Positions 12,480-61,244 of a stretch of DNA of 64,000 bases are shown piece after piece (the stretch's first letter is position 1; each line of letters starts with the position of its first letter). The DNA is from Candidatus Enterousia sp. GTDB lineage: Bacteria > Pseudomonadota > Alphaproteobacteria > Rs-D84. The stretch covers positions 14,407 to 78,406 of the forward strand of contig JAZRBB010000008.1 in NCBI GenBank assembly GCA_045634865.1, given 5' to 3'. The notes beneath the pieces were generated by a model that saw only the letters and a program-made list of their open reading frames with translations, ran no database searches and was not told where the DNA came from. The position numbers and the translations under genes are program-made.

Positions 12480-12484
12480 TAAAT

Positions 12485-13930: not shown

Positions 13931-13941
13931 AAGGAAACATC

Positions 13942-30504: not shown

Positions 30505-30553
30505 TTGACTTTAAGATATGAAATACATATAATCATTAAAAATTTTAATGATT
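30505..30553 (+). promoter_or_regulatory. Promoter of the marR-RND operon with overlapping palindromic operator
   Basis: TTGACT-17-TATAAT (30505-30533); perfect inverted repeat AATCATTAAAA-A-TTTTAATGATT (30531-30553). Confidence 0.75.
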
Positions 30554-30585
30554 TAGTTTCTGAACAATTAACCAAGGGGGTATCT

Positions 30586-32332: not shown

Positions 32333-32333
32333 A

Positions 32334-32948: not shown

Positions 32949-32967
32949 TGAAACAAAGGGATATAAA

Positions 32968-35900: not shown

Positions 35901-35985
35901 GTCTTTGATATGGACGTTCTGTCTGACACCCGCATTGTTCTTTGTAATGGAAAAGTTGCGTGTAAAATTGAGTCGCAAGAAATAA
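32968..35985 (+). CDS. RND-family (AcrB-like) transporter with non-canonical TM4/TM10
   Basis: FIRRPV, PSVDFP, YPGASS, 12-TM RND layout with two periplasmic loops; TM4 VSNAI and TM10 VNNNI. Confidence 0.92.
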   Translation: MLKFFIRRPVTTIMFVLFFVVLGLVSFPKMNIERSPSVDFPYVTVTFVYPGASSSELESQVVKKAENAMSEVAGVKKITSQIYENSAYVISEFNLGVNVDDKANEVKAKIDGLANEFPSDLKQPVIAKLNPLQQAVLDIVIQGADAKDLEKYIKDNLSNKITAVRGVASVNTFGGLTRAVRIAMDPDLMAAHGVTINDIVSAIATHNLNVPGGKIETDINSENVRFVGEFQNVKEISDLEITTVEGDTFKLSDVANVRDAARDIEKGARYNGKEVVIMSVVKASDGNAIKISNALRKKMPELQAQLETRFQNATMEIVSDSSLTISQATTDTINSIVLGVIFTIIVLLAFTRNWRSTIIAGVVIPVSLLSGFFLMNGSGFTINTMTLLAYATALGTLVSNAIILIESALSELQAGKTPEQAAEEGTRKVAIPVLAGVGTNVVVFLPLAFMGGIVGQFMLQFGMTVVYLTLLSLLFSFTLTPMMIAKLLRFNQKNKKDIQQVQKHNNSTRLHSWYEYQYKRPWIVILGAVGILILSARLMGYVGNEFSPSTDANEITITARAPMGSLYAKSESIAKIIEERVSNIPEVKSTTVKIGDKGLQNISVKVTLVDVEKRKISDKQLAQQILPTLADIPDAEIQIRAGENMSSAGISSDLVLNVFGDDDDKRNMYANQIIANINKIESVQSVVLAQQAPAKEIRFIPDNEKMNFWGVKNANAGVALRTALFGNDTHKYKEHGDEYPIVLEFDKQFKNKSMFDSVYVSSQKGMVALSQLGTLESAPASSNIYRLDKNRITEIDINIGKSTIGPVQAEIQKYLDTINWEPGYSASFAGMSEIQSESTGEIAQAFLLATILTFMLLAAIMNSFIHPFTIATSIITSFAGVFIVLFLSGASMNVGAMLAFIMLVGLVVNNNILVLEPTVARVQRGENAYKVLWQELMDKKRMIWMTTIAVVAGMLPQLWSNDGLKVAMGAVMIGGMCASLIWTFCLTPALFFVMEKLRVKLSRKK

Positions 35986-36733: not shown

Positions 36734-37705
36734 GTGAAGTTTTCAGATGTTTTTTGTAAGAAGTGTTTATACGCGATTTTTTCGTGCGTTTGCTTGCCAA
36801 GTACATCTTTTGCAGTGGAAATTTTAGATTTAAATACCGCATTACAAAATACGTATCGTGCATGTGTTGGTATTGATGATAAATTATCAGATTATAAAAC
36901 ATTGGCGGGCATAAATACTGGTGTCCAGGCTGTGGGTACGGGTCTTGGTGTTGGCGCAACAGTTGTTGGTATTGTAAAGGTTTCAACGGATAAGGCGGCA
37001 GAATCTTATGAAAAAATACTGAAAGAATTGCGTGAAAAAACAAAAAATGTTAAATATGAAACTTTGACAGACGAAGACAAAGCAAATTTTGAAAAAGAAT
37101 TTGAAGTTTCGTTTGATACGGCTGTAAAAGATATTGATAATTACAAATCAGAATTAGACAAACTTACAACTAAATCAAAAAAATTGGGTAATTGGCGAAC
37201 TGGATTATTGGCAACAAATACCGCAACCAATGTGGCTGGTGCAATATTGGCTTCCCAAAGTGGTCAAAACAAAGATTTGCAGGCAATGGTGAAAAATTGT
37301 TTGGAGAGTATTGATGCATTAAATATGTCCATTGGTCAGGCGCGCATAAATGGTGAGGATGTATCAGAGGCAAAAGAAATCGCGTCGGCATGTGGCGAAT
37401 ACAGGTCTGTTGATGTTTCGTCTATATCAAAACGTGCAACCGGTGCTATGGCGGCATCTATCGTTGGTGCTGCGACTGGTGCGACAGGAACGATAACATC
37501 AGCTGTGGCGAATACGGATAAAATACGTAATGACAATACCAATGCTGGTAAAAAGAAAGAAAAGGATTTGAATACAGCATCTAATGTGCTGGCGGGTGCA
37601 ACAGCGGTTGCGTCTGCAACATCAACGGTATTTAGTGGGACACAAATAGCAGCGATAAAACGTGTCGCAAATGTAGCGTCCAGGTGTGAGGGGGTATTGA
37701 AATGA
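36734..37705 (+). CDS. Exported protein with four Gly/Ala/Thr-rich hydrophobic helices and a coiled coil (translocator/pore-former-like)
   Basis: GAGGG RBS and GTG start, signal peptide, two-fold internal repeat; overlaps the next gene (ATGA). Confidence 0.75.
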   Translation: MKFSDVFCKKCLYAIFSCVCLPSTSFAVEILDLNTALQNTYRACVGIDDKLSDYKTLAGINTGVQAVGTGLGVGATVVGIVKVSTDKAAESYEKILKELREKTKNVKYETLTDEDKANFEKEFEVSFDTAVKDIDNYKSELDKLTTKSKKLGNWRTGLLATNTATNVAGAILASQSGQNKDLQAMVKNCLESIDALNMSIGQARINGEDVSEAKEIASACGEYRSVDVSSISKRATGAMAASIVGAATGATGTITSAVANTDKIRNDNTNAGKKKEKDLNTASNVLAGATAVASATSTVFSGTQIAAIKRVANVASRCEGVLK

Positions 37706-40700
37706 TAAAAAATATTCTTGTCACATTGATTTCGGTTTTTTGTTTAATTGTGAACGCAAATGCGAACATAAAAATTAGCTCAGATGTTGTTGATAACAGT
37801 ATCAAAGAAACATTTGTTGGGGAACAAAATCAGGCTTCTGCATTAGCTACCTGGAAAGAAAACATAGAAAATGACGGCAGTATATCGGCATTGGCTGTAT
37901 GGCGTGTTTGTTGGGCTGGTGGTTTAGATATTAAGAATAAACCAGAAGATAAAAATAAGTGTCAAATTTTTAGGCAAAATTTATTAAAAGATTCATCATT
38001 AAAATATCGTACAACTTGTCAAAAGAATGCAGGTGAAGGGACATATTGCATAGATGATTTCTTTACAAATAGTTTTTATGGTGGAACCCAGGTTGGTTTA
38101 TCAGATGCTATTATGTTGGCAAAAGAATGGGCGCGAATAAATCATGCAGACGACAGCCTGGAATGTGATGATAAAGTAATAACAGTAAAACCAAAGAATA
38201 TATTAGCGCGGGCATCTGATGATTATGCTATATTATGTGCATCAAAAAATCGCAAGACGTATTACGAATTTGTTTTTGACCATATTGGTGAAAGTGACAG
38301 TGGGGCGATATTTAATAGTGTCGGTGCTGCAACATGTAAATTATTTAATACAAAGGCTAATGTGCCGACTTTGGCATGTATTGCGCGAACACCAGAACAT
38401 ATAGAAAATACAAATGGAAATTGTCAGCCTGTTTCTTGTGATTCAGATGCTAATACCTGTGGAAAAATAAACAGTACACTTGCAAAATTTGGGTATACAG
38501 GCGTATATAAGAATAATAAATGTGAAATCTTTTTTAATAATGTATCAGATAAGAAAGGTTTAAAAACAGCATTTGGTATAAATTCCTTTGAATTTTGTAA
38601 AGGTATCAAAGTTCAAAACACACCGTCAGTAGAAGCACTGTTAAAACAGCATATTGTCAAAAATGCCAAAGTTGATATATCTGATGTTTCATGCAGTCCA
38701 GGACATCGTATATACAATGGCCCTGGTTGTTCTGATGATGGTAAAGATGGTATAAAAACATGTTATGTCCAGGGACAACAGATTGATTTTGTGTTTGATG
38801 ATATAAGTACATTTATAAAAGAATACCACCAAGGTGGCATTCAGGGTATGGAATGTGTTATCAGTGGTGGGACATTTTCTGGTCAACATTGTGCACATTT
38901 GAATCAAGAACAATGTGACGCGCTTGCCAAATCAGATGTATCACGTTGTTCTGTTTGTAGGGATATAGAGTGGGACAAAGAAAATAATATATGTAAATTG
39001 AAAAATGCAGAAAATGCCAATGATTTAGAAAAAACTATAAATATAGCGCAATTGGCTGCTGCCACAACTGCAGCGGTATTTACTGGTGGTATAATTGCGT
39101 TTACTGCGGTAAAAGTTGGAACGGTTGCATTTACTGTTCCTGTTCTGTTGACGCTTGTTAATGTGACCGGTCAGATTATGGAATTTGTCGGGACTTTAGA
39201 GGCCAAAGGCATAGCAAAAGAGTTTATTGTACAATCAAACAATTGTAATGACAGTAATTGTGCAGACCTGTTAGTCAAAGATTGGTTGCAACGTCTGTCT
39301 AATTTACGAAATGAACTTACCAAGGCAGAATATAACGGTATAAATGAAGAATTAGCCAGATTGTTAAAAATGACGTCAAAGAAATTCAAAGAAAATATGG
39401 CAATGAATATTTTGATAGAATATTCCAGGGGCGCGAATAAAGGTGATATATCTGCAAATGTGCAAAAGAAATTCCAAGAATTGTATGAATCACCAGATTT
39501 ATTGGAATCAAACAAAAAAGGCTTCTTTGATAAAGACAGTTGGGAACCAGAACAGGTTTTGCGTGCAGTCGGAATTGGTTTACAGATTGCTTCAACGATA
39601 GGTAGTGCTGTATATAGTTGGCACCAAGAAAATAAGGCCTTGGCTGCAACGCGTGACGCTTTGAACGAAGGATATGACGGTATAACCCACGATCCAGCAA
39701 AACGCGAAGCAGTAAAAAAGCAATTGGCCAACGCGAACATTGTAAAAATTGATACAGATAGTTATGAAAACAAGTTGCGCGCGGCATATCAAAAATATGC
39801 ACCAAAGAATCAAACATATGATGATTTTGTAAAAATGTTCAAAAATGAAGAAGAATTTGATAAACAAGTTGCCAGATGGTCTTCTTTTGAACCTGTCGTT
39901 TTTAAAGAAAGTCAATATGCAGCAGCATATACTATGTCCTCTCCGTATTCAACTTATGATCCTGAATTTGCAAAAACTATGAAAGACATAGATGCAAAAT
40001 ACGCAGATGATATTGCTGAATTGGATGCTAAAATCAAAACTATAGACGATCAAAGAAAAAACATAGTAAAAGAACAACAACGGTTAATAAGGCAGGAAGC
40101 AAAAGAAAGGATAGGACGTGATGTGCGGTATAAAGATTGGGATTTAGAGGAATTAAAAGATTTAAAATCAAAAGATGAAATGGTGTCGTTAAAAACTTCC
40201 GATTTTAAACTAGATAAAGTACCAGCATCTGAATTTTCACCAGAAGAACTAAAGCTTTTGGATGAAAAATATAAATTAGAAAATATGCATGAAGGTTATG
40301 TTACAGCAAGGGATGTTGAAAAAAGTAAAGTAATAAATGCAAGTGTAGATAAAGAACTTTTGGGAAAATATGTTACAGAGCGTGAAAACATAATGATTAA
40401 AACAATAGCAGAAGATGATGATTTGTATAACAACCTTAAAAATTGGTCAGATATAAGCGATGAGGAGAAACGTATCAGCATACAAAAGATGTATGATTCA
40501 CTTGATAAGTCAGAAAATATTGTGGAGCAACCAGCTGTATATGTATATAAAAACCCTAATTCAACTATAAGAGCAGATGCTGGCAGACGATTTAATCTTA
40601 ACCCGTTGGGTGAAGATGTTAGTGCAAATAATCTTCCAAAAACGGTTTTACATGAATTTTCACACACTGGCGATAGTTATGCTCCTGATAGTGGAATGCT

Positions 40701-40857
40701 TGGTGCTCAAAAATCTGCGATAAGATTTGAAGGAAGTCGTACATACTGGGATATATACAGGACAGTGCCCTCAGAAGTGATTAGTTGGAAATTTACAGAT
40801 TCGGACACAGATATAATTGGTGAAGTCGAAAAAATGCGCGAAGCGATGGGAAAGTAA
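37702..40857 (+). CDS. Large exported Cys-rich protein with hydrophobic hairpin and C-terminal HExxH metallopeptidase-like domain
   Basis: Signal peptide; 25 Cys, all in the first ~515 aa; hydrophobic AAATTAAVFTGGIIAFTAVKVGTVAFTVPVLLTLV; VLHEFSH at aa 984 followed by YRTVPSE. Confidence 0.75.
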   Translation: MIKNILVTLISVFCLIVNANANIKISSDVVDNSIKETFVGEQNQASALATWKENIENDGSISALAVWRVCWAGGLDIKNKPEDKNKCQIFRQNLLKDSSLKYRTTCQKNAGEGTYCIDDFFTNSFYGGTQVGLSDAIMLAKEWARINHADDSLECDDKVITVKPKNILARASDDYAILCASKNRKTYYEFVFDHIGESDSGAIFNSVGAATCKLFNTKANVPTLACIARTPEHIENTNGNCQPVSCDSDANTCGKINSTLAKFGYTGVYKNNKCEIFFNNVSDKKGLKTAFGINSFEFCKGIKVQNTPSVEALLKQHIVKNAKVDISDVSCSPGHRIYNGPGCSDDGKDGIKTCYVQGQQIDFVFDDISTFIKEYHQGGIQGMECVISGGTFSGQHCAHLNQEQCDALAKSDVSRCSVCRDIEWDKENNICKLKNAENANDLEKTINIAQLAAATTAAVFTGGIIAFTAVKVGTVAFTVPVLLTLVNVTGQIMEFVGTLEAKGIAKEFIVQSNNCNDSNCADLLVKDWLQRLSNLRNELTKAEYNGINEELARLLKMTSKKFKENMAMNILIEYSRGANKGDISANVQKKFQELYESPDLLESNKKGFFDKDSWEPEQVLRAVGIGLQIASTIGSAVYSWHQENKALAATRDALNEGYDGITHDPAKREAVKKQLANANIVKIDTDSYENKLRAAYQKYAPKNQTYDDFVKMFKNEEEFDKQVARWSSFEPVVFKESQYAAAYTMSSPYSTYDPEFAKTMKDIDAKYADDIAELDAKIKTIDDQRKNIVKEQQRLIRQEAKERIGRDVRYKDWDLEELKDLKSKDEMVSLKTSDFKLDKVPASEFSPEELKLLDEKYKLENMHEGYVTARDVEKSKVINASVDKELLGKYVTERENIMIKTIAEDDDLYNNLKNWSDISDEEKRISIQKMYDSLDKSENIVEQPAVYVYKNPNSTIRADAGRRFNLNPLGEDVSANNLPKTVLHEFSHTGDSYAPDSGMLGAQKSAIRFEGSRTYWDIYRTVPSEVISWKFTDSDTDIIGEVEKMREAMGK

Positions 40858-43150: not shown

Positions 43151-43909
43151 ATGACCCGATACAGAATTGATGTTGAATATGATGGCACAGATTTAATTGG
43201 TTGGCAGATAAATCGCCAAGGGCCGTCTGTGCAATCTTTATTGCAAGATGCGATTTATAGATTCTGTGGTGAAAATGTGACTGTGTTTTCAGCAGGTCGT
43301 ACGGATGCTGGCGTTCATGCAATTGCTATGCCTGCGCATTTTGATTTGGATAAAGATTGGGATGCTGAAACTGTAATGCGTGCAATCAATTTTTATTTGG
43401 TAAATGAACCTGTGTCGGTATTAAGATGTGAAAAAGTTGATGATGATTTTCATGCACGTTTCAGTTGTAAAAAACGTGTTTATAAATATGTCGTCGTAAA
43501 TCGGTCTGCGCCAGTTGTGTTGAATAAAAATCGTGTATGGTGGGTACCGCAAAAACTGGACATTGATTTAATGCGTGCACAATCACAAAAGTTAGTTGGC
43601 AAACATGATTTTACTTCGTTTCGTGCTGCACAATGTCAGGCAAAAAGTCCGATAAAGACTTTGGATTCTTGCACTATCACACAAAATGGTGACGAAATAG
43701 TTTTGGAATTTGCTGCACGTTCTTTTCTGCATCACCAGGTTCGCAATATGGTTGGAACATTGATTGATATTGCTTCTGGCAAGCCTTATGACATTGATGA
43801 AATTTTTGCAAAACAAGAGCGTGGCGCTGCCGGTGTGAATGCGCCTGCGTGCGGATTGTATTTTGTCAAAGGCCTTTATGCCACAGACGATGATTCGAAA
43901 TCTTTCTGA
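43151..43909 (+). CDS. truA: tRNA pseudouridine(38-40) synthase
   Basis: EYDGT...GWQ, AGRTDAGVHA, FHARFS, GKHDFTSFR, FLHHQVRNMVG, APACGL. Confidence 0.96.
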   Translation: MTRYRIDVEYDGTDLIGWQINRQGPSVQSLLQDAIYRFCGENVTVFSAGRTDAGVHAIAMPAHFDLDKDWDAETVMRAINFYLVNEPVSVLRCEKVDDDFHARFSCKKRVYKYVVVNRSAPVVLNKNRVWWVPQKLDIDLMRAQSQKLVGKHDFTSFRAAQCQAKSPIKTLDSCTITQNGDEIVLEFAARSFLHHQVRNMVGTLIDIASGKPYDIDEIFAKQERGAAGVNAPACGLYFVKGLYATDDDSKSF

Positions 43910-45827
43910 TTTTACCGGACGGATAAATAACCATACCGCCTGTTAAAACTTTTGCATGACATTTTGGTGCACGAATTGAAACAGGTGAAACTATGAAGTC
44001 CACAGATTCATCACGACATACAGTATTTATATTATCAATCACAGTTTTTATAGACTGCATATAAACCAGATTCCAGTTTGGTGTTTGATATTTACATAAG
44101 CCTTTAACGCATTTCTTACGCGCAATTTTATTTGTTGTTGATTCATCATTAAATGTTCGCCACGAACCGAAAGCAAAAAAGTGTTTTGATGAACGCGCTT
44201 TGTTAAAATGTATTTTGCCATTTTTAACAAAGCCAACCAATTCATTATCATAAGTTGAATAAAACAAAGGTTTTTGTGGATTTGCATAAATTATAATTGC
44301 AGATGCTATAAATACTGAAGCGATAATATAGTTTATATTTCGTATAAAAAGATTCTTGGAATCGGGTCTAACAATCAATATTATGCAAAGCAAACCGATT
44401 ATGCACAGCCCAAGAACCAGACTTGACATATGTGGCATAGCAATTGTTGCATGGGGTAATTTTGTTATGCTTTCTGCCAAATGCAAAGCGAAGGTATAAA
44501 TATCATAGGTTGCATTATTCAGGCCATGAAAACCAAAGTATGCAAACACTGTTCCAATCATAATCATCGGCATTATAGCAACAGAAAATATTGGTAATAT
44601 AACCAGATTTCCAATTAAACTATATAATGGAATATAGCCAAAATGTGCAATTATAAATGGTAAAGTGAACACGCCTGCAACAACAGCAGTCATAAGCGCA
44701 GAGTATATTTTATGTCCGATGTGTTTAATTTTGTTTCTTTTTTGATATTCGGATTTATCGAAAAACCAAAGCAATCCAAATACAGCGGCGAAAGATAATT
44801 GAAATCCTGCATGCATTACATAAAACGGATTGATTAAAAATATAATAAAAAATACCAGAACCGCGGTTCGCAAAGACAACAAATTACGTCCAAATATAAA
44901 TGCCATAAATATCAATGTAGTCATTAAAAATGCGCGCACAGTTGCAACAGAAAAACCAGAGATTCCTAAATAAAACAATAAGCCACACCATGCACAAATC
45001 ATGGCGGGATATTTTGCAGGCATGCGTTTAGTAATTGGCGATATGCATCGAAACAATAAATAAAATATAGCGAATAACCAGCCACCAACCAAAGTCATAT
45101 GAAAACCGCTGATTGACCAAATGTGTCCAACACCAACTGCTTTCCATATATTGCTTTCGGATTTTGGAATTGTGTTTTTATAGCCTAAGACCAAAGCATC
45201 AGTTAAAACAGAGTTTGATTTATTGTGAATTTTTGTGCGCAGATTTTCTGAATTGTTTGTGTCTGATTTGATTTTGTAATCTTTGACGAAACCTATACCA
45301 GATAATTTGTTGAAATATGTCCAACGTGCAAAATCAAAATCATCAGGCACATACGCGGCGGACGGATGAAACAACATAATGTTTCCAGATATAGTATCGT
45401 TTATATTTGGCATATCTGCATCTTTGTTGAAAGATACTCGAACAAGTGCATGCTTGTTCCCGGAATATTTGGAATCAATTTGATTTGCAGGTATCTTTAA
45501 TGTGATATGCGTATTTTCTGTCATAAAATCTATGTCTTGAACAGTTCCGGATATATAACGCGATTTATGTGAAGCATATATTTGCGGTGTATCAATGATA
45601 TTGGTATAAGACACAGAATAAAAGAAGCCAAATAAAAATAATGCAATCGCAGTTATAAAAATGTTTTTGTGTTTATATATTATCAAGCCAGATAACAAAG
45701 TGATTAAAATCGGAAATTGAAAATTTGGTTCTGAATGCATGGTGAAATATAAAATCGCACCCAGTGCCATAACAAAAGGCGACCATAAAAACAGGTTTTT
45801 ATATTGGTTATCCAGGAATTCTTTCAT
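43866..45827 (-). CDS. comEC: ComEC/Rec2 competence channel (DUF4131 plus competence domain, no beta-lactamase domain)
   Basis: HIWSISGFHMTLV, ATVRAFLM, GFQLSFAAV, GNLVILP. Start moved to ATG 45827. Confidence 0.9.
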   Translation of the reverse strand: MKEFLDNQYKNLFLWSPFVMALGAILYFTMHSEPNFQFPILITLLSGLIIYKHKNIFITAIALFLFGFFYSVSYTNIIDTPQIYASHKSRYISGTVQDIDFMTENTHITLKIPANQIDSKYSGNKHALVRVSFNKDADMPNINDTISGNIMLFHPSAAYVPDDFDFARWTYFNKLSGIGFVKDYKIKSDTNNSENLRTKIHNKSNSVLTDALVLGYKNTIPKSESNIWKAVGVGHIWSISGFHMTLVGGWLFAIFYLLFRCISPITKRMPAKYPAMICAWCGLLFYLGISGFSVATVRAFLMTTLIFMAFIFGRNLLSLRTAVLVFFIIFLINPFYVMHAGFQLSFAAVFGLLWFFDKSEYQKRNKIKHIGHKIYSALMTAVVAGVFTLPFIIAHFGYIPLYSLIGNLVILPIFSVAIMPMIMIGTVFAYFGFHGLNNATYDIYTFALHLAESITKLPHATIAMPHMSSLVLGLCIIGLLCIILIVRPDSKNLFIRNINYIIASVFIASAIIIYANPQKPLFYSTYDNELVGFVKNGKIHFNKARSSKHFFAFGSWRTFNDESTTNKIARKKCVKGLCKYQTPNWNLVYMQSIKTVIDNINTVCRDESVDFIVSPVSIRAPKCHAKVLTGGMVIYPSGKIRKISNHRLWHKGL

Positions 45828-45873
45828 ACCCAGATTATAAGATTTTATCTGTTTATACCGCAACCGATATTTT

Positions 45874-46188
45874 TTATTTCCCGAAAATAAAATCTGGATT
45901 TGATGATATGGATATAATTGTGTCCATATCATCATCTGGTGATGAATGCTGTCTTATTATTTTTCCGCATTTTTCACATTTATGTGTTATGACAAAGCCG
46001 TCTTTGGTTGTTTCAACAGAAATTGGGCGCATCATACCACCACAATTTGCAGTGCGGTCGCCAGGCATATTGTCAACGTGCCGAGAATATAAACATTTCG
46101 GGCAATGGTTTGTGTATCCATTGCCCGAAACTTTTGCGCCACAGTTGGCACATACGAAATCTTCAACGCGTTTTGTGAATTTTTTCAT
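45874..46188 (-). CDS. RNHCP-domain zinc-binding protein
   Basis: FVCANCG...TNHCPKCLYSRHVD..PGDR..NCGG.M.P...HKCEKCG. Confidence 0.85.
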   Translation of the reverse strand: MKKFTKRVEDFVCANCGAKVSGNGYTNHCPKCLYSRHVDNMPGDRTANCGGMMRPISVETTKDGFVITHKCEKCGKIIRQHSSPDDDMDTIISISSNPDFIFGK

Positions 46189-47901: not shown

Positions 47902-47961
47902 AAATAAATTAAATATTTTTATTATTGACCGAATTATAGTAATTTTACTATGATTTTGGTT

Positions 47962-49116
47962 ATGAAGAGAGTTTTGCCGTTTATCATTGGAATATTCGCA
48001 TTCTTTGGTGTTGCAACCGCCAAAGAATATCGTGCTGCATTGGTTGCAGACATTGATTCAGGCCAAGTTTTATACCAAGAAAATGCAAATCAATTAAATT
48101 ATCCTGCCAGTTTAACAAAAATAATGACATTGTATTTAACATTTGATGCGCTGGAACATAAACGTTTGCGCTTGGACGATTATTTAATTGTTTCACAATC
48201 TGCTGCAAATGCCCAGCCTGTTAAATTGGGACTAACTGCGGGCAGCAAAATATCTGTGGAAGACGCGATAAAGGCGGTTGCCGTGCATTCTGCAAACGAC
48301 GTTGCGCGCGTTTTGGCTGAAAATCTGCAGGGTGGGAAAGAAGGGAACTTTGCAAATTTAATGACGCGTGTTGCGAATGAAATTGGTTTACAACAGACGA
48401 ATTTCGAGAATTCATCTGGCTTGCCAAATGATGACCATATGTCTACTGCACGCGATATTGCATTGCTGTCTATGGCTGTATATAAACATTTTCCGCAGTA
48501 TTGGAAGTATTTTGGTATAAAATCTTGGACTTATAATGGTAAAACATATACAAATGGAAACAGGTTGTTGGCTGATTATCCTGGATGCGACGGTATGAAA
48601 ACAGGGTTCACAAATAAATCAAAGTATTCTTTGGTTGCAACTGCAAAACGCAATAATAGACATTTAATCGCTGTTGTTTTGGGTGCGGATAACAAAGATG
48701 TTCGTGCAAATGTCGCAACAAAACTGCTGAATCTTGGGTTTAATAAAATCGGTCAAAATGTTTCTGATTACAGTTATCAAAATGATACACATGTTGTTGC
48801 TGCCAATGCAAATAATCCGATGGCAAAATATGCCCAAGATGCGCCAAAATATAATACGGAATATTCAAATGGACCAAGTAGCGCAAAAGTATATTCATCT
48901 GGTTCTGCTGGAGTTCAATGTGGTGCGTTTTCATCGTATGATTCTGCTACAAATCAGGCGAAACGTGTTAAAGGCGCGACAGGTTTGAATACGAACATCG
49001 AAAAAAATGACAGCGGTTTGTATCGTGTTCGCATAAATGGCTTGTCTGAAAGTGCAGCACAGAATGCTAAAAATACCGCTTCCAATCATGGTATAGATTG
49101 TTATATATTTCATTAA
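47962..49116 (+). CDS. dacA: D-alanyl-D-alanine carboxypeptidase (S11) with C-terminal SPOR domain
   Basis: YPASLTK (SxxK), SAND, KTG; C-terminal VQCGAFSS...YRVRING. Start is 47950 or 47962. Confidence 0.88.
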   Translation: MKRVLPFIIGIFAFFGVATAKEYRAALVADIDSGQVLYQENANQLNYPASLTKIMTLYLTFDALEHKRLRLDDYLIVSQSAANAQPVKLGLTAGSKISVEDAIKAVAVHSANDVARVLAENLQGGKEGNFANLMTRVANEIGLQQTNFENSSGLPNDDHMSTARDIALLSMAVYKHFPQYWKYFGIKSWTYNGKTYTNGNRLLADYPGCDGMKTGFTNKSKYSLVATAKRNNRHLIAVVLGADNKDVRANVATKLLNLGFNKIGQNVSDYSYQNDTHVVAANANNPMAKYAQDAPKYNTEYSNGPSSAKVYSSGSAGVQCGAFSSYDSATNQAKRVKGATGLNTNIEKNDSGLYRVRINGLSESAAQNAKNTASNHGIDCYIFH

Positions 49117-52925: not shown

Positions 52926-54482
52926 ATGGTAAAATTTTTAGATAATAATAGTGGTTTTAATCAGTGGAATGCTATGAATTCCAATAAAAAGCAACCTAAA
53001 TCTATGGGATTTTTTGGTTGGTTAGTGACGATTTTCTTGGCCTGGTGGATTGTTGGTCTGTTTGTTAAACCAAAGAATACAACTGTTGAAAACACCGCAC
53101 CAGTTGTTATTGAAAAATCGTCCGTTGCAACGAACACAATAAATGCAGACCATATATCCGCCGATGTCCAAGGGTTGCGTATATCTAATATCTCGTTAAA
53201 GGGTTATAATAAATCGTCCAAAGACAGCACGCCTGTTTCATTGCTGGACGCTGAAAATAATTTTATAGAAGTTGGATTTGTATCTGCTGATACGCAAACC
53301 CCAAACATAAATACAAAATGGACAATTGATGCGAATAACAATATGTCTTGGAACAGTAATGCCAAGGTTAAATTTAATCGTGATATATCTATTGCAGATT
53401 ATGTGTTGCGCGTATCAGACACAATTAAAAATAATTCTAACAAAGAAATAAATGTTGCGCCATATGCACGCGTTGTGCGTGGTGTTTCTGATAAAGTATC
53501 CAGTGCGATTGAAACAGGCGGTGTTGTTTATGCTAATTCCAATTTGGATTATGCGAATTGGGCAAAGTTAAATAAAAAATCATATGCTTTTTCCACAGTG
53601 CGTGGGTATTTTGGTTTTGCTGAACAATATTGGGAAACAGTTGTCTCGCTGGACACAAATGACCAAACAATCAGCCTGAAAAAAAGCGGTGATTCTTATT
53701 TTGCAGACAGCAATGCTGCACCTGTGAAAATTGGGGCAGGGCAATCGGCCACAATCGACACATATATTTTTGCAGGTCCGCGCGTTGGAAAAATATTGGA
53801 TAAAGCGTCTGAAAATATTCCGAATTTATCAAAGACTATGGATTACGGTTGGTTCTGGTTTTTTGCTCAGCCAATGTTATGGATGATAAATTGGTTGTTT
53901 GCGATGGTGGGCAATTATGGAATCGCTATTATTTTAATGACTTTGATTTTAAGATTGTTGATGTGGCCATTGACGCGTAAGTCTTATGCGTCCACTATTA
54001 AAATGCAACAAATGCAACCTGAATTGCAACGTGTCCAAAAACTGTATGCAAATGACAAAGCGCGTATGCAAATGGAAATGATGAAGGTGTATCAATCGCA
54101 CAAGACATCACCAATGGCAGGGTGTTTGCCAATGCTGATTCAAATACCAATATTCTTTGCGTTGTACAAGGCTTTATTGATATCTGTTCCAATGCGCAGT
54201 GCAAAGTTTTTGTGGATATCAGATTTGGCTGCGATGGATCCATATTTTATATTGCCGATTTTGATGGGCGCAACAATGATGTTGCAACAATATCTGCAAA
54301 GCCCGAAAACAAATACAAATGGAAATGATGCGGTTGCATCAACACAAAAGGCTATGAAGTGGATGCCAATAATATTCACAGTAATGTTCGCATGGATGCC
54401 TGCTGGATTGGTGTTATATTGGACTATGTCAAATGTGTTCAGTATATTCCAGATGTATGTAATAAAGAAAACAAATAAATAA
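52926..54482 (+). CDS. yidC: Membrane protein insertase YidC
   Basis: DYGWFWF, GNYGIAII, MQPEL, GCLPMLIQIP, DPYFILP, PAGLVLYW. Start moved to ATG 52926. Confidence 0.94.
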   Translation: MVKFLDNNSGFNQWNAMNSNKKQPKSMGFFGWLVTIFLAWWIVGLFVKPKNTTVENTAPVVIEKSSVATNTINADHISADVQGLRISNISLKGYNKSSKDSTPVSLLDAENNFIEVGFVSADTQTPNINTKWTIDANNNMSWNSNAKVKFNRDISIADYVLRVSDTIKNNSNKEINVAPYARVVRGVSDKVSSAIETGGVVYANSNLDYANWAKLNKKSYAFSTVRGYFGFAEQYWETVVSLDTNDQTISLKKSGDSYFADSNAAPVKIGAGQSATIDTYIFAGPRVGKILDKASENIPNLSKTMDYGWFWFFAQPMLWMINWLFAMVGNYGIAIILMTLILRLLMWPLTRKSYASTIKMQQMQPELQRVQKLYANDKARMQMEMMKVYQSHKTSPMAGCLPMLIQIPIFFALYKALLISVPMRSAKFLWISDLAAMDPYFILPILMGATMMLQQYLQSPKTNTNGNDAVASTQKAMKWMPIIFTVMFAWMPAGLVLYWTMSNVFSIFQMYVIKKTNK

Positions 54483-54506
54483 AAAATGCCCAAACGGGCA
54501 TTTTTA
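54481..54506. terminator. Bidirectional terminator between yidC and the convergent gene
   Basis: AAAAAATGCCC-AAAC-GGGCATTTTT. Confidence 0.8.
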
Positions 54507-54848
54507 TTTTTGGGTTATATGTTTCAGCAAAGAATCAGGCATCTGTATTTTTATATTTTTGATTCCACAAGCACGTTTTGTAAATTGAACACAGTTTATC
54601 GGTTTTGATTTTATTGCGCATTCTGGGGCAAATTTGCAAGCGTATTTAACAAATTTCCAACCATATTGTTGAAGTACGGTTAAATCGCGTTTTTTTATAG
54701 GTATCAAGACAACTTTATTGAACCGAACAAATTGATACATGATGCATTTATTTTTTGTTATCAAGATTGGTGCAACATGCCGATATTTTTTGCATAAAAT
54801 TTTTGCGCATAGTTTATTGGTTTTTGTTGAAAAGCCGATATATATCAT
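54504..54848 (-). CDS. Hypothetical basic protein, possible permuted papain-like fold
   Basis: His motif YRHVAP precedes Cys motif INCVQFTKR, followed by P-x-x-L; the H-before-C order is typical of permuted NlpC/P60 proteins. Confidence 0.55.
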   Translation of the reverse strand: MIYIGFSTKTNKLCAKILCKKYRHVAPILITKNKCIMYQFVRFNKVVLIPIKKRDLTVLQQYGWKFVKYACKFAPECAIKSKPINCVQFTKRACGIKNIKIQMPDSLLKHITQK

Positions 54849-54915
54849 AATGAAACCTTTGCGTATATTATTATATTCTGATTTATTCCCTCTATCCATA
54901 AATCAGAACACCATT

Positions 54916-55266
54916 TTAATCTATTATCCAGCCTTTATCATGTGCGGCTTGTTCCAACGTATCCATAGCAGATTTCCACAAAGCCGCCGATTTATTTTCA
55001 GAATAAATATATTGGTGTGGTGCACGTCTTTTGTCGCCGAACTTTTTCATAACATTTAATTGTTCTTCTGATAATTTTCCAGACAAATACAATTTGGTAA
55101 TCAAAGTTTCAACATCTAATAATTCACAAGGTCTGTTCGTGTTTGCATAATGGTGTACAAAACCATTTTGTGCAGATTTAGAATATAAAAACCAAAACCA
55201 CAATTGTTCAGCATTCTGAAATTGTTCAGTCATATTCATATTGTTATCATGTAATGTGTTTAACAT
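54916..55266 (-). CDS. Conserved-looking hypothetical protein (AEQLWFWF...RPCE...LW...KG)
   Basis: Strong AAAGGAG RBS; Trp-rich conserved-looking motifs; function unknown. Confidence 0.75.
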   Translation of the reverse strand: MLNTLHDNNMNMTEQFQNAEQLWFWFLYSKSAQNGFVHHYANTNRPCELLDVETLITKLYLSGKLSEEQLNVMKKFGDKRRAPHQYIYSENKSAALWKSAMDTLEQAAHDKGWIID

Positions 55267-55452
55267 TTTGTTTTTCTCCTTTGGTTATTAAAGTTATTTT
55301 GTTTATCGCATTGTTATTCAATGCAATAAAATCTAGACTAAAAATTGAATTATGTAAAATGATACAACTATAAATAGAAACGCGAATCGGAAAACCGATT
55401 CGTAATAGGTTTTTGTTCTTATACAATCGAATCGGTATATTTTATGAAATTG

Positions 55453-55478
55453 AAAAAATCCGCAATTGCGGATTTCTT
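55453..55478 (-). terminator. Terminator of the virB8-B9-B10 operon
   Basis: AAATCCGC-AATT-GCGGATTT with T6 on the minus strand, immediately after the virB10 stop. Confidence 0.75.
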
Positions 55479-55480: not shown

Positions 55481-57922
55481 TTATTCCATTGTTATCGGTG
55501 GGAAGCAATCACCACCAGTATCTGGACAACAATTGAATCCTTGTTCACCCATATCTGTATAGGTTTCACCTGTGCAACAACCATTTGCATCAGGGGCAGA
55601 ACCATCGTCGCATGTTAATACCGCTTCTTCTGGTGCAGCGCTTGCAGGCTTAGCAAATGGGTTTAATATCGTTTCGCCATCATCTGCATATTGTAAACCC
55701 AATACTTCTTGGTTATATGCTTTTTGTTGTTCTGTGGTGCCAGTTTTATCCCATGATTTAGTCGCATCGTTATATTGGGTTCCGCCATATTTTTGTTCCG
55801 CGGCCGCTTCCACACTTGCACTGTATGCAGCGCTTTTTGCGTTATTCTTTGCTTCGTATGTCAAAGATTCGCAGAACATTAATACAGTTCTGTAATCATA
55901 ACCAGATTTCATCCAGTTTCCCGTTGGTTTCAATTTCCCATTCTTTGATTTTGGATCTTCTTCACAGTATTCTTGTAAATCCCATCCACGAACCTGACCA
56001 ATCCAAGATGAATCTTTCGGATTAATTTTGACATTAGCTTTCAAATCGTTCCATTTACGACGTGGGTTGGGTGAGAGTGTTGAAAATTCACATTTTTTAT
56101 TGTTATTACCACAGGATGCAATCAAATCCACAGGTGAATACACATTTATACGTGTTCCCGCTGGAATCGAAAATGGCGGTACAGTATTATTTATTGCATC
56201 AAAAACCAATTTGTTAGTGATTTTATTCCATTGATTTATTATTTCTTGTTTAGCCATTTCAGATGAACGAATTGTCCCAGATTGAACAACTGTATTGTTA
56301 TCCAGGTTTATTTGATTCACAAAAGTATCAGCGATTGGCGCAATTAAATTGACGGCGGCTGGTACCATTGCTGTCAATATTGGCATAACCATTTGTTCCA
56401 CATAATCTGTACTGCCACGACCTGGGACCCCAACACGACCCTGGGCATCGCCAGAATATGGGTCTTGGCCACCATCAAAATTAAATTCAACGCCATCTGG
56501 ACGAATAAACTGATACCATTTAATATTCATACGACCAAAAGATTGATAAGGTCCAGGCAATTCACCATCCAAATATCCCATCAACAACGTTCCTGTGGGA
56601 ATGATAATTGTTCGGCCATTATCTGAATATACATTTCTGTCCACTGTGGCACGCACAGGAATACTGTGATTTTTTGACGAATCACACTCACCATTTGTGC
56701 AACCATAAACACTAGCATCTGCACGAACTTCTGAAACAATGGTTGCAGGAATCGGCTTGAACTGACGCAATATAAAACTTCTGTCGTACGGTTTGGAAGA
56801 CACAACACTTTCGCCATCTTGTGAAGAACCACGATATTTATCTTCATCTTCTTCTGTGTTCCAGCCAGCTTCTTCGCTTAATTTTTTCATGCCGCCACTG
56901 CTCCACACCGCATTTTCAAATTGACCATTTGATGCGACTGCAGATGTACCAATTGGTGCAGATAAATTCGGTAAAGTCAAACCACGATTTTTTATGTTTC
57001 TGTATCCAATATGGTCTGCATCAGTCCCGATTCTTGAACCATCTTTCAATGATGTTATCACACCTGTTGACCAATCATATTTACCTGTTGGATTGGAACA
57101 ATCTTTGTCTGAAAATGGGTAAAAATAATTTGCGCCCCCAGATGGTTTTATCCAACCAATTTGTGTCCCAGATTGATTATACCCCGGAATCGCAAAATCA
57201 GAACATTTTTCAGGTGGCAACATAAATTCAGGCTCTGGTTCTGGTTCAGCAAACGCAACAGCCGGTGCAACCATTTCAATCGTTTTTGGTGCTTCTGGTT
57301 CTGGCTCCGGTTCTGGTTCTGGTTCAGGTTCAACCACAGGTTCGGGCTCAGGCTCTGGTTCAGGCTCAACCACTGGTTCTGATTCTTTCACAGGTGTTGG
57401 TTCTGGTTCTATTTCTACTATTGGCTCTGGTTTTGCAAAAGCACTGAATGTGACCGGTATTTTTTTTGTTTGTTTATTTGTTTCTTCTTCTGGTAAATAA
57501 TAAGAAATCACCAAAGACGCGTTTGTTTTAGATTGCTTTGCGCTTGGGGTATATTCCACAATCATTGTACATTCATCAGAAACCAGACCAGAACAATCAT
57601 TCACATCAATTGTCCAACTGTCTTTTGCTTTATCAATTTGTGCTTCTGCGATATTAACGTCGCCAGTAACAATAATTTTCAATTTTTTCTGCAAAGTTTC
57701 GCCTGCCTGGACATCGATGAAGTCTAACTGTTTTGGATCAAAAGCCCACTCTATGGGTTTTGTTTCGACAACTGTTTTTTCCTTTTTACCACCATAATAT
57801 TTTTGCAGTACCAAAGTTAACAAAATTATCACGACAACAAAAGCAGCAACCAACAACAACCATTGAATATGCTTTGGTGTTGTTGTACGAAATTCTTCAA
57901 ATTGCTTTTTTATACTTTTCAT
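55481..57922 (-). CDS. virB10: VirB10/TrbI-like T4SS core protein with extra Ig-like, Pro-Glu linker and Cys-rich domains
   Basis: N-terminal TM; [57 protein letters not shown] and [10 protein letters not shown] are TrbI-type motifs. Confidence 0.88.
57230..57435. repeat. Degenerate hexamer repeats encoding the (PE)n linker of VirB10
   Basis: GGTTCT/GGCTCT/GGTTCA runs encoding [25 protein letters not shown]. Confidence 0.85.
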
Positions 57923-57928
57923 AGTTTT

Positions 57929-59428
57929 TTACTGTATTCTGATTACATGACAACTTGAACCACTGAACTTTAATAACTGATCACACAACTTTTGCGCTGT
58001 ATCTATGTCTGGCAAAGGTCCGATACGTAAACGATACAGACGCGCGGTTGCAGAATCAGAGCCCAATTCACCAACGCCATGTTCATCTACGGCATAGAAC
58101 ACACTGTTTTTATATGGTGTTAAAATACCAACGCCATCATCACCGCTGAACTTTGCCAATAAATCAGCCCAATAATCATCTAATGCCTTGACTGAAGTAT
58201 CAGACTTCAATTCCACAGCAACACCGACCTGATTACTGGTTATCAATGGGATATTCGATTGTGGCAAATATGCACCGGCAGTCATTCTGGCATTTGGTGC
58301 AACATTGATATTTGGGTTCGTATCAACAACAGCCATACCAGCATTATTAACACCATATGCGCCATACCCAGCCATAGGTTGATTTCCAATTATTATCGGA
58401 CTGGCAGTATAATCATTTATGCCAGCATTTATAGCATACTGGTCATCAGTATAAGCAATCGTATTCAGAGATTGATTCGCCATCAAAGATTGTGCGACAT
58501 TAGCCTCTGCCAAAGCCATAACAGATGCAGTATCAGCAATCAAGAAAGGCTTTTCACGTTTTTTGATGCATACAATTCTTTGCCCGCTGCGCAAAATCAT
58601 GTCACCCACAGCCTCTACAATCAATAAACGACCGTCTTCGCCGTCTGTGCGGAAACCGACAGGACTTTCGCCACCTTCGACCAACAAAGATACCACAGGA
58701 CGCTGGGTCATAGAAATAACCTTGTCCCCAAAATCGATGTATGTGAATATACGGTCGCGCCATACGCGTTCTGGTGCAATTACATAATCATCAGGATTTG
58801 GCACAAATATATCCAAATCAAAACGGAATTCAGACGGGTCAATTTTCATTGTTTTTATCCAACCGTAATCTTCGCCATCAACACCAATCGTTGATGAAGC
58901 CGAAGATTGTTTTGTTGCAAATACAGAACCCATTTTCCCAGATGATGTTGGTGCCATAGCGCCACCAGAAACAGCACCGCCATTACCCAAAGAAATATCA
59001 ACTTGGGAATAAGCAATCTCACTAGAATTTACGGGATACGCACGCAAATAAAATGTATATATGTTCCCCGATTTACCAGTCACTATAAGATTTGTATCGC
59101 TACCATTGTTTTCAGCAGAAGGTTGAATATACATTGTCCGACTACCTTTCGATGTTTGTATATCAAATAAGGTTTCATCGCCACGCATTATCTCTTCAAT
59201 CGTTTCACCGTTCGGTAACGTCACCAAAGTCGCCATGCCAGAACGTGTTTTGATCGGCAGAACAGTTCCCTTGGACCAAACAAGATTTGCATATCCCGGC
59301 TGGGAAGAACCCGCAGCCATATTTGCATTTGGATTATCCCACGCAACCTGATAATCAGCAAATGCAGGAAATGCGCAAAGCATAACTGATAACAAAGAAA
59401 TATTTAATTTGTTTTTTAAGCAAGTCAT
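57929..59428 (-). CDS. virB9: VirB9/TrbG-like T4SS outer-membrane core protein with C-terminal SPOR domain
   Basis: Signal peptide; TNLIVTGKSGNIYTFYL and PERVWRDRIFTYIDF (VirB9-type); C-terminal LYRLRIGPLPDIDTAQKLCDQL...CHVI (SPOR). Confidence 0.85.
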   Translation of the reverse strand: MTCLKNKLNISLLSVMLCAFPAFADYQVAWDNPNANMAAGSSQPGYANLVWSKGTVLPIKTRSGMATLVTLPNGETIEEIMRGDETLFDIQTSKGSRTMYIQPSAENNGSDTNLIVTGKSGNIYTFYLRAYPVNSSEIAYSQVDISLGNGGAVSGGAMAPTSSGKMGSVFATKQSSASSTIGVDGEDYGWIKTMKIDPSEFRFDLDIFVPNPDDYVIAPERVWRDRIFTYIDFGDKVISMTQRPVVSLLVEGGESPVGFRTDGEDGRLLIVEAVGDMILRSGQRIVCIKKREKPFLIADTASVMALAEANVAQSLMANQSLNTIAYTDDQYAINAGINDYTASPIIIGNQPMAGYGAYGVNNAGMAVVDTNPNINVAPNARMTAGAYLPQSNIPLITSNQVGVAVELKSDTSVKALDDYWADLLAKFSGDDGVGILTPYKNSVFYAVDEHGVGELGSDSATARLYRLRIGPLPDIDTAQKLCDQLLKFSGSSCHVIRIQ

Positions 59429-59431
59429 TGT

Positions 59432-60124
59432 TTATATTCCTTCCTTGTAAAAATCTGTATCTGATAACGGATCTGTTTCTTTTGCGTCCAAAACTTTGTA
59501 TTCTGTGACCTGAATACCAAGTGGATTATTACGCAAATCTTTCAGATAATTCAGTATTTTATCCGAACTATTATCCAGATAAGATTGTATTGCTATACCT
59601 ATCTTATAACTTTTTGGACCGATCTGTCTACCACTATTTTGATCAAAACAAGTTCTATCAAAACCAACAATGTAACGTTGAGATTTTTTATTAAAGACAA
59701 TATTACCATCGTTGAAATTAACCGAACAAACCATGTTGTACACACGATTTGTAGTCACTTCATTGTATGTATCAGTACTCCTGAACTGTGCAGACACAGT
59801 AGGTGAAGACCAAGGCTTTACAATGCGATTCCATCTTTCAATGGTGGCAGACTTTTGTGGTTCGAGAGTGTTCCTGGCAATTATATATGTTCGGATAAAA
59901 CCTTTGATGTATTCTGATTGGAAATCTTTATCTGTTGGGTTTTGTTTGTCCAATACATAATTCACATTGCGACTTTGGTTTTGCAGGAAAAAAATCTCCG
60001 GTCGTGTAAGCGGGGTCATCTGATACAAAGTGAACACCAAAACAGCCAATATCGCAATCGATGCTGCTAATACGAACATTAATGCTCTTGATAACAAAAC
60101 CGGCGGTTTCACGACCTTTGACAC
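59432..60124 (-). CDS. virB8: VirB8-like T4SS inner-membrane protein
   Basis: Single N-terminal TM ending MTPL, FIRTYIIARNT, VKPWSSPTV, NPLGIQVTEY; first gene of the B8-B9-B10 order. Confidence 0.82.
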   Translation of the reverse strand: MSKVVKPPVLLSRALMFVLAASIAILAVLVFTLYQMTPLTRPEIFFLQNQSRNVNYVLDKQNPTDKDFQSEYIKGFIRTYIIARNTLEPQKSATIERWNRIVKPWSSPTVSAQFRSTDTYNEVTTNRVYNMVCSVNFNDGNIVFNKKSQRYIVGFDRTCFDQNSGRQIGPKSYKIGIAIQSYLDNSSDKILNYLKDLRNNPLGIQVTEYKVLDAKETDPLSDTDFYKEGI

Positions 60125-60150: not shown

Positions 60151-60180
60151 ATTGTAGACAATTTGTTTTATCATGTGCAA
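60151..60180 (-). promoter_or_regulatory. Putative promoter of virB8-B9-B10
   Basis: TTGCAC-18-TACAAT on the minus strand, about 27 nt before the GTG start. Confidence 0.5.
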
Positions 60181-60385: not shown

Positions 60386-60459
60386 AGGGGCTTAGTTCAA
60401 CGGTAGAATATCGGTCTCCAAAACCGCGGATGAGGGTTCGATTCCTTCAGCCCCTGCCA
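60386..60459 (+). tRNA. tRNA-Trp (CCA)
   Basis: AGGGGCTTAGTTCAACGGTAGAATATCGGTCTCCAAAACCGCGGATGAGGGTTCGATTCCTTCAGCCCCTGCCA; canonical position before secE. Confidence 0.95.
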
Positions 60460-60499: not shown

Positions 60500-60679
60500 A
60501 TGAAAAAAATACTAGAGTTTATTAAATCGGTGCGTTCAGAATGGTTCAAGATTGTTTGGCCATCACGTGAAAATGTTATCAAAACAACCATCATGATATT
60601 GGTGTGCTCGGGTGTGGCAGCTTTGTTCTTTTTTGTTGTTGATGGTATATTAAATGCGCTGGTTGGGTGGATTTTCTAA
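60500..60679 (+). CDS. secE: Preprotein translocase subunit SecE (59 aa, below ORF-track cutoff)
   Basis: MKKILEFIKSVRSEWFKIVWPSRE...FFFVVDGILNALVGWIF; lies between tRNA-Trp and nusG. Confidence 0.93.
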   Translation: MKKILEFIKSVRSEWFKIVWPSRENVIKTTIMILVCSGVAALFFFVVDGILNALVGWIF

Positions 60680-60698: not shown

Positions 60699-61244
60699 AT
60701 GGAAGAAAAAATGCAGTGGTTTGTCGTAAATGTTCATACTGGTTGCGAAGACAAGGTTGCACGTGAATTGCGTGAACAGATTGATAAACGTAAATTAAAT
60801 GCTTGTTTCGGAGAGATTTTAGTTCCAACACGTGAAGTGTCTGAGATAAAAGCGGGCAAACGTGTAAAGTCAGAAAAGAAATTTTTTCCGGGGTATATTG
60901 TTGTCCAGATGATTATGAATAACGAAACTTTTTCTTTGGTTAAATTGATGCCCCAGGTTGTTATGTTTTTGGGTCAAAAAGTTAAAAACCAATCTAAACC
61001 AATTCCTATCAGTGAAGCAGAAGCGCGTCGCTTGTTAAAGCAAGTGGAAGAGGGGTCTGTTGTCACAGAAGATACTGTTTATGAAGATGGTCAAGAAGTT
61101 CATGTTATCGATGGGCCATTTGCAAACTTTAATGGTATTGCATCGAATGTAGATAATGTGAAGCAGAAGATGACTGTCACGATTTTAGTATTTGGGCGCG
61201 AAACCAGTGTTGAATTGGATTTTGCCCAGGTAGAAAGAGTTTAG
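60699..61244 (+). CDS. nusG: Transcription termination/antitermination factor NusG
   Basis: WFVVNVHTGCE, FFPGYIVV, DGPFANF, VFGRETSVELDF. Confidence 0.96.
   Translation: MEEKMQWFVVNVHTGCEDKVARELREQIDKRKLNACFGEILVPTREVSEIKAGKRVKSEKKFFPGYIVVQMIMNNETFSLVKLMPQVVMFLGQKVKNQSKPIPISEAEARRLLKQVEEGSVVTEDTVYEDGQEVHVIDGPFANFNGIASNVDNVKQKMTVTILVFGRETSVELDFAQVERV

Follow-up and report, generated by a model that had tools for sequence, protein, structure and literature searches.

We analysed a 64-kb stretch of the genome of Candidatus Enterousia (the whole of this stretch is called the window below), in which three genes on the minus strand, virB8, virB9 and virB10, form an operon encoding core components of a type IV secretion system (T4SS). 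The genes virB8 (59432-60124; 230 amino acids, aa), virB9 (57929-59428; 499 aa) and virB10 (55481-57922; 813 aa) follow each other in canonical order with gaps of 3 and 6 nt, and all three products matched their Pfam families above the gathering cut-offs: VirB8 matched PF04335 over aa 13-211 (E 1.3e-11, 45 bits against a cut-off of 23), VirB9 the CagX/VirB9 family PF03524 (E 2.4e-20, 74 bits against 34), and VirB10 the TrbI/VirB10 family PF03743 (E 5.1e-17, 63 bits against 35). The set that marks a P-type (VirB-like) system, VirB8, VirB9 and VirB10 encoded together, is present, and the tightly spaced three-gene operon of a preliminary description, made from the sequence alone, was confirmed. 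NCBIfam agreed for VirB9 and VirB10 (VirB10 model, E 1.7e-15), yet with scores far under the equivalog cut-offs. VirB9 and VirB10 are, as had been noticed, longer than their canonical counterparts (269 and 400 aa in the Sinorhizobium meliloti references).

The operon diverges, again as described, from tRNA-Trp (60386-60459), secE (60500-60679) and nusG (60699-61244), with rplKAJL on the same side, and its opposite flank is occupied by yidC. An intrinsic terminator begins 5 nt past the virB10 stop (55450-55475, minus strand; TAA gaaag AAATCCGC AATT GCGGATTT TTTCAATTTC, the T-run being at the position of TTTCAATTTC), and a second hairpin follows downstream of it (55402-55383). Both a promoter and a terminator had been proposed for the operon; the terminator was recovered, whereas the promoter-like site 5' of virB8 (60151-60179, minus strand; TGCACA-17-TACAAT, 9 of 12 matches) is weak, and such sites are no commoner around the virB8 region than in shuffled sequences. 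Family searches and tblastn recognised no VirB4, VirB11, VirD4, relaxase or integrase among the large open reading frames (ORFs) of the window, in line with the earlier remark that virB11, virD4 and a relaxase gene are missing there.

VirB8 is a bitopic protein of the inner membrane, with one N-terminal transmembrane (TM) helix and a periplasmic VirB8 domain. VirB9 begins with a signal peptide, followed by the VirB9/CagX core (aa 48-290, nt 58559-59287); a low-complexity linker then leads to a peptidoglycan-binding SPOR domain at the C-terminus (PF05036; aa 461-496, nt 57941-58048, E 3.7e-4), which was also found when the C-terminal fragment was searched alone (E 9e-5; 23 bits, the cut-off being 21). 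Another SPOR domain in the window sits on a D-alanyl-D-alanine carboxypeptidase (Peptidase_S11; 47950-49116, plus strand; Pfam matches on the homologues in loci L001 and L002). For VirB10, an AlphaFold2 (AF2) model based on 65 sequences, with a mean predicted local distance difference test score (pLDDT) of 65, comprises a TM helix (aa 17-43), a PapD/ASH-like Ig domain modelled as a confident beta-sandwich (aa 59-162, nt 57437-57748), a disordered linker rich in Pro and Glu (aa 169-237), a small beta domain with conserved Cys (aa 240-305, nt 57008-57205), the beta-barrel with two antenna helices (about aa 391-600, nt 56123-56752), and a C-terminal extension of ~210 aa (aa 601-813) with a Cys-rich knot at its end. 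In Foldseek the barrel matched CagY, TrwE, Xanthomonas VirB10, pKM101 TraF and ComB10 (E 1e-8 to 1e-5), and the N-terminal domain matched the PapD/ASH-like domains of CEP192 and HYDIN (E 3e-6 to 6e-5). The middle and C-terminal parts of VirB10 had no Pfam or NCBIfam match at relaxed thresholds; in the added domains, no cysteine varies among the 65 homologues.

Candidatus Enterousia is placed in the Alphaproteobacteria incertae sedis by NCBI and in the order Rs-D84 by GTDB (PMC12306168). A scan of GTDB with one genome per species found 102 relatives, of which 80 were kept, all of them gut metagenome-assembled genomes (MAGs) titled Candidatus Enterousia, Alphaproteobacteria bacterium or uncultured proteobacterium; among them is KH370_54 (locus L032), an Enterousia MAG of the published genome study (PMC12306168). 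The nearest relative of the window is UBA1218 (L017; 92-100% amino-acid identity); an exact look-up of the window VirB9 among public assemblies gave no record. A search with VirB10 returned 900 relatives, including more than 100 full-length proteins of ~800 aa that are 54-85% identical, all of them metagenomic.

We compared synteny and identity across 83 related virB-region loci, using the window as the reference for identities. The order nusG / virB8-virB9-virB10-s116-s131 / yidC-lspA, in which s116 and s131 are two small genes downstream of virB10, is kept in essentially all of these loci, and the encoded proteins are 29-96% (VirB8, 79 loci), 63-96% (VirB9, 82 loci) and 42-92% (VirB10) identical to those of the window. 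The ratio of nonsynonymous to synonymous substitution rates (dN/dS), calculated between the window and four relatives at increasing distance, was 0.09-0.26 for virB8, 0.05-0.11 for virB9 and 0.10-0.17 for virB10, similar to the values of yidC and lspA (0.04-0.12). Among the 31 loci carrying all compared genes, the VirB8, VirB9 and VirB10 distances correlated with the housekeeping distances of the flanks (Pearson r 0.91-0.92, Mantel p 0.001); VirB similarity was not unusually high in any pair of loci, and no outlier suggested a transfer. The overall GC content of the operon and that at third codon positions (GC3) resemble those of the neighbouring genes. Because dN/dS is low and the divergence of the VirB proteins tracks that of the flanking housekeeping genes, vertical inheritance under purifying selection is the interpretation that we adopt, in support of what the preliminary description had proposed: judged from its sequences, the operon is a fixed chromosomal, selected trait of the Enterousia clade.

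The same comparisons bear on the possibility that an integrated conjugative element or plasmid has left the operon behind as a decaying remnant, an origin to which the conjugative Microvirga megaplasmid cluster found deeper in the VirB9 family (see below) could point. The reading frames are intact and evolve under the constraint given above (dN/dS 0.05-0.26), in 83 species-level loci the operon sits, free of insertions, at one and the same place between nusG and yidC, it co-diverges with housekeeping genes and has a native base composition, and neither an integrase, a relaxase, a coupling protein nor repeats lie nearby, so that it lacks the marks of a conjugative plasmid or of an ICE (integrative conjugative element). 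The patchy distribution with plasmid-like or ICE-like nearest homologues, which the preliminary description had named as contrary evidence, was not observed, and VirB10 proteins of plasmids match at best with 24-29% identity, in the core only. We regard a remnant as extremely improbable; by all these sequence measures the operon is neither a mobile element nor in decay. Insertions are present in some Enterousia loci and were considered as missing T4SS parts; they were rejected as such, being housekeeping genes or genes for secreted Cys-rich proteins.

Searching VirB9 against representatives of 1.8 billion proteins revealed, below the Enterousia matches, a tier of long VirB9s (440-620 aa, 35-49% identical) whose taxonomically labelled members are MAGs of unclassified Alphaproteobacteria, and several of these outgroup proteins align to the window VirB9 through aa 498-499. 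Full clusters were found in outgroups with 38-41% VirB9 identity. Three of the outgroup loci (L088, L092 and L094) encode VirB2-VirB3-VirB4, four or five unassigned genes, VirB8, a lipoprotein of 62-66 aa, a second VirB8 and VirB9; in L088, VirB9 carries the SPOR domain and is followed by a VirB10 of 2717 aa and then by VirB11. Locus L087 shows VirB8, a small lipoprotein, VirB8, VirB9, two giant ORFs (the second being the VirB10 homologue) and VirB11, and L091 shows lipoprotein-VirB8-VirB9-VirB10 (1507 aa)-VirB11, comEC following two genes later. The closest outgroup (L089 and L090; VirB9 49% identical) has virB8-virB9-virB10 alone, placed after rpsB-tsf rather than beside nusG. The next VirB9 tier belongs to Hyphomicrobiales; one of its clusters, on a Microvirga megaplasmid, encodes a MobA relaxase together with VirB2 to VirB11 and VirD4. 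The small outgroup lipoprotein, a VirB7 with a lipobox and a conserved SPCAC motif, occurs in every outgroup whose cluster is full or nearly so and in the Microvirga cluster as well, and since both carry it, we assign the outgroup and Microvirga systems to one family. The giant proteins at the VirB10 position of the outgroups measure 1507, 1749 and 2717 aa, some of them being without a recorded Pfam match (ORF coordinates 11452-21429 in L087, 11611-19764 in L088 and 11563-16086 in L091), and L087 has an additional protein of 1563 aa upstream of its VirB10 homologue. In L092 (1-6676) and L094 (1-6778) a type IVb pilus or Tcp-like cluster (TcpQ, secretin, PilO, T2SSE, T2SSF) adjoins the full T4SS.

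The clusters in L087, L088, L091, L092 and L094, an undescribed chromosomal family of uncultured gut and environmental Alphaproteobacteria that ranks nearest in sequence outside Enterousia, thus resemble the Enterousia operon in an oversized VirB10 and in a VirB9 whose identity of 35-41% extends across the whole protein up to and including the SPOR end. They differ in being contiguous and in containing VirB2, VirB3, VirB4, the VirB7 lipoprotein, often two VirB8 and VirB11, whereas Enterousia has at this site only virB8-virB9-virB10 and two lineage-specific small genes. Because complete outgroup clusters carry them, the long VirB9 with SPOR and the oversized VirB10 are traits of the family. The operon is, on this comparison of sequences and gene content, one fragment of a P-type T4SS from an alphaproteobacterial family whose clusters remain intact in related uncultured Alphaproteobacteria. 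This overturned the view of an isolated and architecturally unique machine, the more so as deeper in the family a T4SS of a conjugative megaplasmid is found, and it left the suggestion of novel domain additions half standing: the domains are real, but the length of VirB9 with its SPOR domain and the oversized VirB10 are not inventions of Enterousia. The closest outgroup VirB10 aligns over aa 197-601 only, and for this reason the Ig domain near the N-terminus and the C-terminal extension are specific to Enterousia. The T4SS is nevertheless new for its lineage, although it is not a new machine: the earlier statement that it was undescribed agrees with the literature, because the Enterousia genome paper does not mention a T4SS (PMC12306168) and our literature search retrieved no paper tying Rs-D84 or Enterousia to any secretion system.

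Two small genes that the preliminary description of the operon had left out follow virB10 on the same strand. The first, s116 (54916-55266, minus strand), always lies beside virB10, is preceded by a separate Shine-Dalgarno sequence, which is located past the virB10 terminator, and encodes a cytoplasmic protein of 116 aa, which is present in 82 of the 83 loci (59-100% identity, 32 invariant columns in 28 sequences, dN/dS 0-0.10) and is thereby better conserved than VirB8. The second, s131 (54504-54899, minus strand), is a small basic, Cys-containing ORF downstream of s116 (77 of 83 loci, 33-92% identity, dN/dS 0.18-0.48), and a bidirectional terminator (54482-54505) separates it from yidC. Both genes stay with virB10 where insertions part them from yidC. 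No match was obtained for either in Pfam, NCBIfam, PHROGs or PDB sequences (for s116 by profile), and no counterpart was found in the outgroup loci; a neighbouring ORF of 170 aa likewise had no Pfam or NCBIfam match at relaxed thresholds. Because the whole region is syntenic, adjacency is weak evidence for membership, and it is uncertain, from gene order and conservation, whether s116 and s131 belong to the T4SS.

Some 40 kb away from the operon, the preliminary description had recognised five VirB6-like genes. Polytopic genes are indeed present there: paralogue a (7976-9988, minus strand) encodes 670 aa with ~9 hydrophobic segments and an extra C-terminal module of ~220 aa, and paralogues b-e (10013-15282, plus strand) are arranged in tandem and encode 419, 401, 481 and 446 aa with 6-8 hydrophobic segments each. 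Relative to paralogue c (401 aa), paralogue a is 25% identical and b, d and e are 15-18% identical; all five end in KK, and the family is confined to Enterousia, with conserved synteny. A CxxC motif (CWTC or CFLC) occurs near the N-terminus of three of the five. The profile of the paralogues gave no significant match to PDB sequences, hhalign against S. meliloti VirB6 and the outgroup proteins gave no signal, and neither did hmmsearch with all paralogue profiles against the proteins of the outgroup clusters. In a structural search with a model of paralogue c, TrwI/VirB6 of R388 provided the sole matches with a TM-score above 0.3 (TMt 0.48-0.56, probability 0.54-0.99, E 0.2-2; the best being 8rt9_F with TMt 0.56, probability 0.99, E 0.22). 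For the five paralogues, the identification as VirB6, for which this low-confidence fold match is the evidence, is suggested by the model, and no more than suggested. The five genes between VirB4 and VirB8 of the outgroup were considered as counterparts of the Enterousia five and rejected, as they are not polytopic. The C-terminal module of paralogue a ('Y(I/L)ES(S/T)GTQYIDT…FIPV(M/L)D…') also exists as a stand-alone secreted protein (L002, 6112-6957; further in L018, L070, L074, L050 and L047), which some Enterousia genomes carry as an insertion separating secE from virB8 (phmmer E 1e-12 to 6e-25); in L086, by contrast, paralogue a has 430 aa and is without the module.

We consider it probable, though by no means certain, that the operon provides the envelope-spanning scaffold of a functional T4SS which is split, with its motors encoded at other sites as in the rickettsial rvh system, and which serves contact-dependent transfer with a partner cell. 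VirB8 would act as an inner-membrane assembly factor, and VirB9 and VirB10 would form the outer-membrane core complex, in which VirB9 would build a ring tied to peptidoglycan via SPOR, and VirB10 would cross both membranes with its N-terminal TM helix in the inner and its antenna helices in the outer membrane. The five polytopic proteins encoded 40 kb away may give a VirB6-type inner-membrane platform, and ATPases encoded elsewhere (at least a VirB4) would drive the transfer of protein or DNA between Enterousia and the partner cell. An ancestral contiguous P-type cluster would then have been split across the Enterousia chromosome, much as in rvh.

Several results weigh against this proposal. 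The ATPase search, which covered the window, the 83 virB-region loci and two loci around the polytopic paralogue cluster, together ~10% of an Enterousia genome, used S. meliloti VirB4, VirB11 and VirD4 and outgroup VirB4 and VirB11 as tblastn queries: VirB4, VirB11 and VirD4 had no match in the window or in the 83 loci, and no VirB4-like product was called in the two paralogue-cluster loci. In all these 85 loci, no VirB4, VirB11 or VirD4 came to light within 10 kb of the virB8-virB10 or the VirB6-like cluster. A database search with the outgroup VirB4 listed the outgroup family only (71-97% identity); a VirB4 match from a group of 810-aa proteins was considered as a possible Enterousia VirB4 and rejected, because it is part of another complete outgroup cluster. 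The SPCAC motif of the VirB7 lipoprotein is absent from the window and from every Enterousia locus, S. meliloti VirB2 and VirB3 had no tblastn match in the window or the Enterousia loci, and no VirB5 was found in the window. The five polytopic paralogues match no TrbL/VirB6 model of Pfam or NCBIfam, even at E up to 10, and the AF2 model of paralogue c has a pLDDT of 55. VirB8, VirB9 and the VirB10 profile also gave no significant match to PDB sequences, and because sequence matches to solved structures are lacking, the family is far from every characterised T4SS.

These gaps might be taken to mean that VirB8, VirB9, VirB10 and the polytopic proteins have been kept as a scaffold without motors, all T4SS ATPases having been lost, and that it works as a passive channel or as a structure for attachment to partner cells. 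The absence of an ATPase from the searched window and Enterousia loci fits this explanation, as do the absence there of the VirB7, VirB2 and VirB3 known from the outgroups and the strongly reduced genome (PMC12306168), and the Cys-rich VirB10 extension and the lectin-like module on one paralogue could hint at a new role. The search reached about a tenth of the genome, however, and rvh shows that T4SS genes can be widely scattered. VirB10 moreover retains the N-terminal TM helix and the Pro-rich linker, which in canonical systems couple it to inner-membrane energy, and VirB4 is, to our knowledge, a universal component, present in all T4SSs studied so far. We therefore consider a scaffold without motors quite improbable; there is similarly only a slim chance that such a derivative acts as an ATP-independent conduit or docking organelle that draws metabolites or nucleic acids from the partner, and we know of no T4SS derivative of this kind that has been described. 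If the ATPases were truly missing, a new kind of T4SS derivative would be at hand.

Uptake of DNA by a ComB-type system, with VirB8, VirB9 and VirB10 conducting it across the outer membrane and ComEC across the inner one, as a source of nucleotides or a route of transformation, is another explanation, which would again involve a VirB4 homologue but neither VirB11 nor VirD4. A comEC gene lies in the window (43866-45935, minus strand; Pfam Competence/DUF4131 on the L001 homologue), and its product is similar to the ComEC of L091, where the gene is found two genes past virB11; Enterousia virB10 is not followed by virB11, unlike its counterparts in L087, L088 and L091; and ComB10 is among the Foldseek matches of VirB10 and gave E 1.5e-10 with its NCBIfam model. 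Rs-D84 has no nucleotide biosynthesis, and type IV pili have been mentioned only for another lineage (PMC12306168), which would suit such a function. Yet the ComB10 model reached 41 bits against a cut-off of 300, less than the generic VirB10 model, comEC is 10 kb off among unrelated genes and is widespread in bacteria, and the nearest relatives of the operon are VirB11-containing clusters and a conjugative plasmid system rather than ComB. DNA uptake of this type seems rather unlikely to us, and the split T4SS for transfer with a partner cell is preferred.

Also encoded in the window is a protein of 1051 aa (37702-40857, plus strand) that had no Pfam match. It combines a signal peptide and a Cys-rich N-terminal half with a TM stretch, a long region resembling a coiled coil and, near its C-terminus, the sequence HEFSH (HExxH, zincin-like), and may act as an effector or at the cell surface. 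Its gene is overlapped by 4 nt by an upstream gene for 323 aa (36734-37705). Three secreted or lipoprotein-like, Cys-rich proteins on the minus strand had no family match: one of 616 aa with tandem 'LFSG(L/I)xGxPA' repeats (18206-20056), one of 189 aa with 13 Cys (20315-20884), and one of 229 aa with 14 Cys (3-710). An RND-type efflux operon (30499-35985, plus strand), comprising a MarR regulator, a TolC-like outer-membrane factor, an ORF of 207 aa without a Pfam match and AcrB, is retained despite the small genome.

Enterousia genomes measure 0.75-1.0 Mb, Rs-D84 genomes are without biosynthetic pathways and standard transporters, so that dependence on a partner has been predicted, and the group is a common gut inhabitant of ruminants, horses, chickens and humans; a mechanism by which these cells make contact has yet to be proposed (PMC12306168). 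In this context, the T4SS scaffold, retained at a fixed site and under selection by all species sampled, is the first concrete candidate for the interface between Enterousia and its partner cell. Its SPOR, PapD-like and Cys-rich modules widen the known architectures of T4SS core complexes, and the intact sister clusters allow its fragmentation to be traced step by step.

Compared with the systems that have been characterised, the operon shares with Agrobacterium VirB/D4, pKM101, R388 and S. meliloti pRmeGR4a the order VirB8-VirB9-VirB10, the fold of barrel and antenna, and the Pfam families. It differs from Agrobacterium VirB/D4 and the MPF_T type in that the VirB10 core is only 24-29% identical, that no sequence match to solved T4SS chains is found, and that it is non-mobile, carries extra domains, and has no adjacent VirB1 to VirB7, VirB11 or VirD4. 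With the ComB system of Helicobacter pylori it has in common the split operons, in which ComB8-9-10 stand together without VirB11 and VirD4, and a possible ComEC partner, given the comEC gene in the window; it belongs, however, to another lineage, and its VirB10 scores 40.8 bits with the ComB10 model NF038092 against the cut-off of 300.

The hallmarks of rvh are duplicated VirB8, VirB9 and VirB4, multicopy VirB6 and the lack of VirB5, and for basal extracellular rickettsiae its use against other microbes has been proposed (PMC11077975). In Enterousia, virB8 and virB9 each occur once in the window and once per locus, its virB10 is not followed by virB11-virD4, it belongs to the order Rs-D84 and thus lacks the ordinal signature of rvh, the taxonomically labelled nearest relatives of its VirB9 come from uncultured non-rickettsial Alphaproteobacteria and Hyphomicrobiales, and the SPOR domain of VirB9 and the PapD-like domain and Cys-rich extension of VirB10 are extras. 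Because the lineage is not rickettsial and the defining duplications are not seen, the system is not classifiable as rvh. The preliminary description had gone further and called it architecturally distinct, which its layout contradicts: like rvh, it is chromosomal and vertically inherited in a reduced alphaproteobacterial genome that depends on other cells, its genes are scattered among housekeeping genes, several candidate VirB6-like proteins are encoded in tandem, some with extra C-terminal domains, and no VirB5 was seen in the window. The resemblance to rvh in layout and biology is close, and the Enterousia system would be, beside rvh, the second alphaproteobacterial T4SS that has turned into a fixed, fragmented trait of its lineage during genome reduction.

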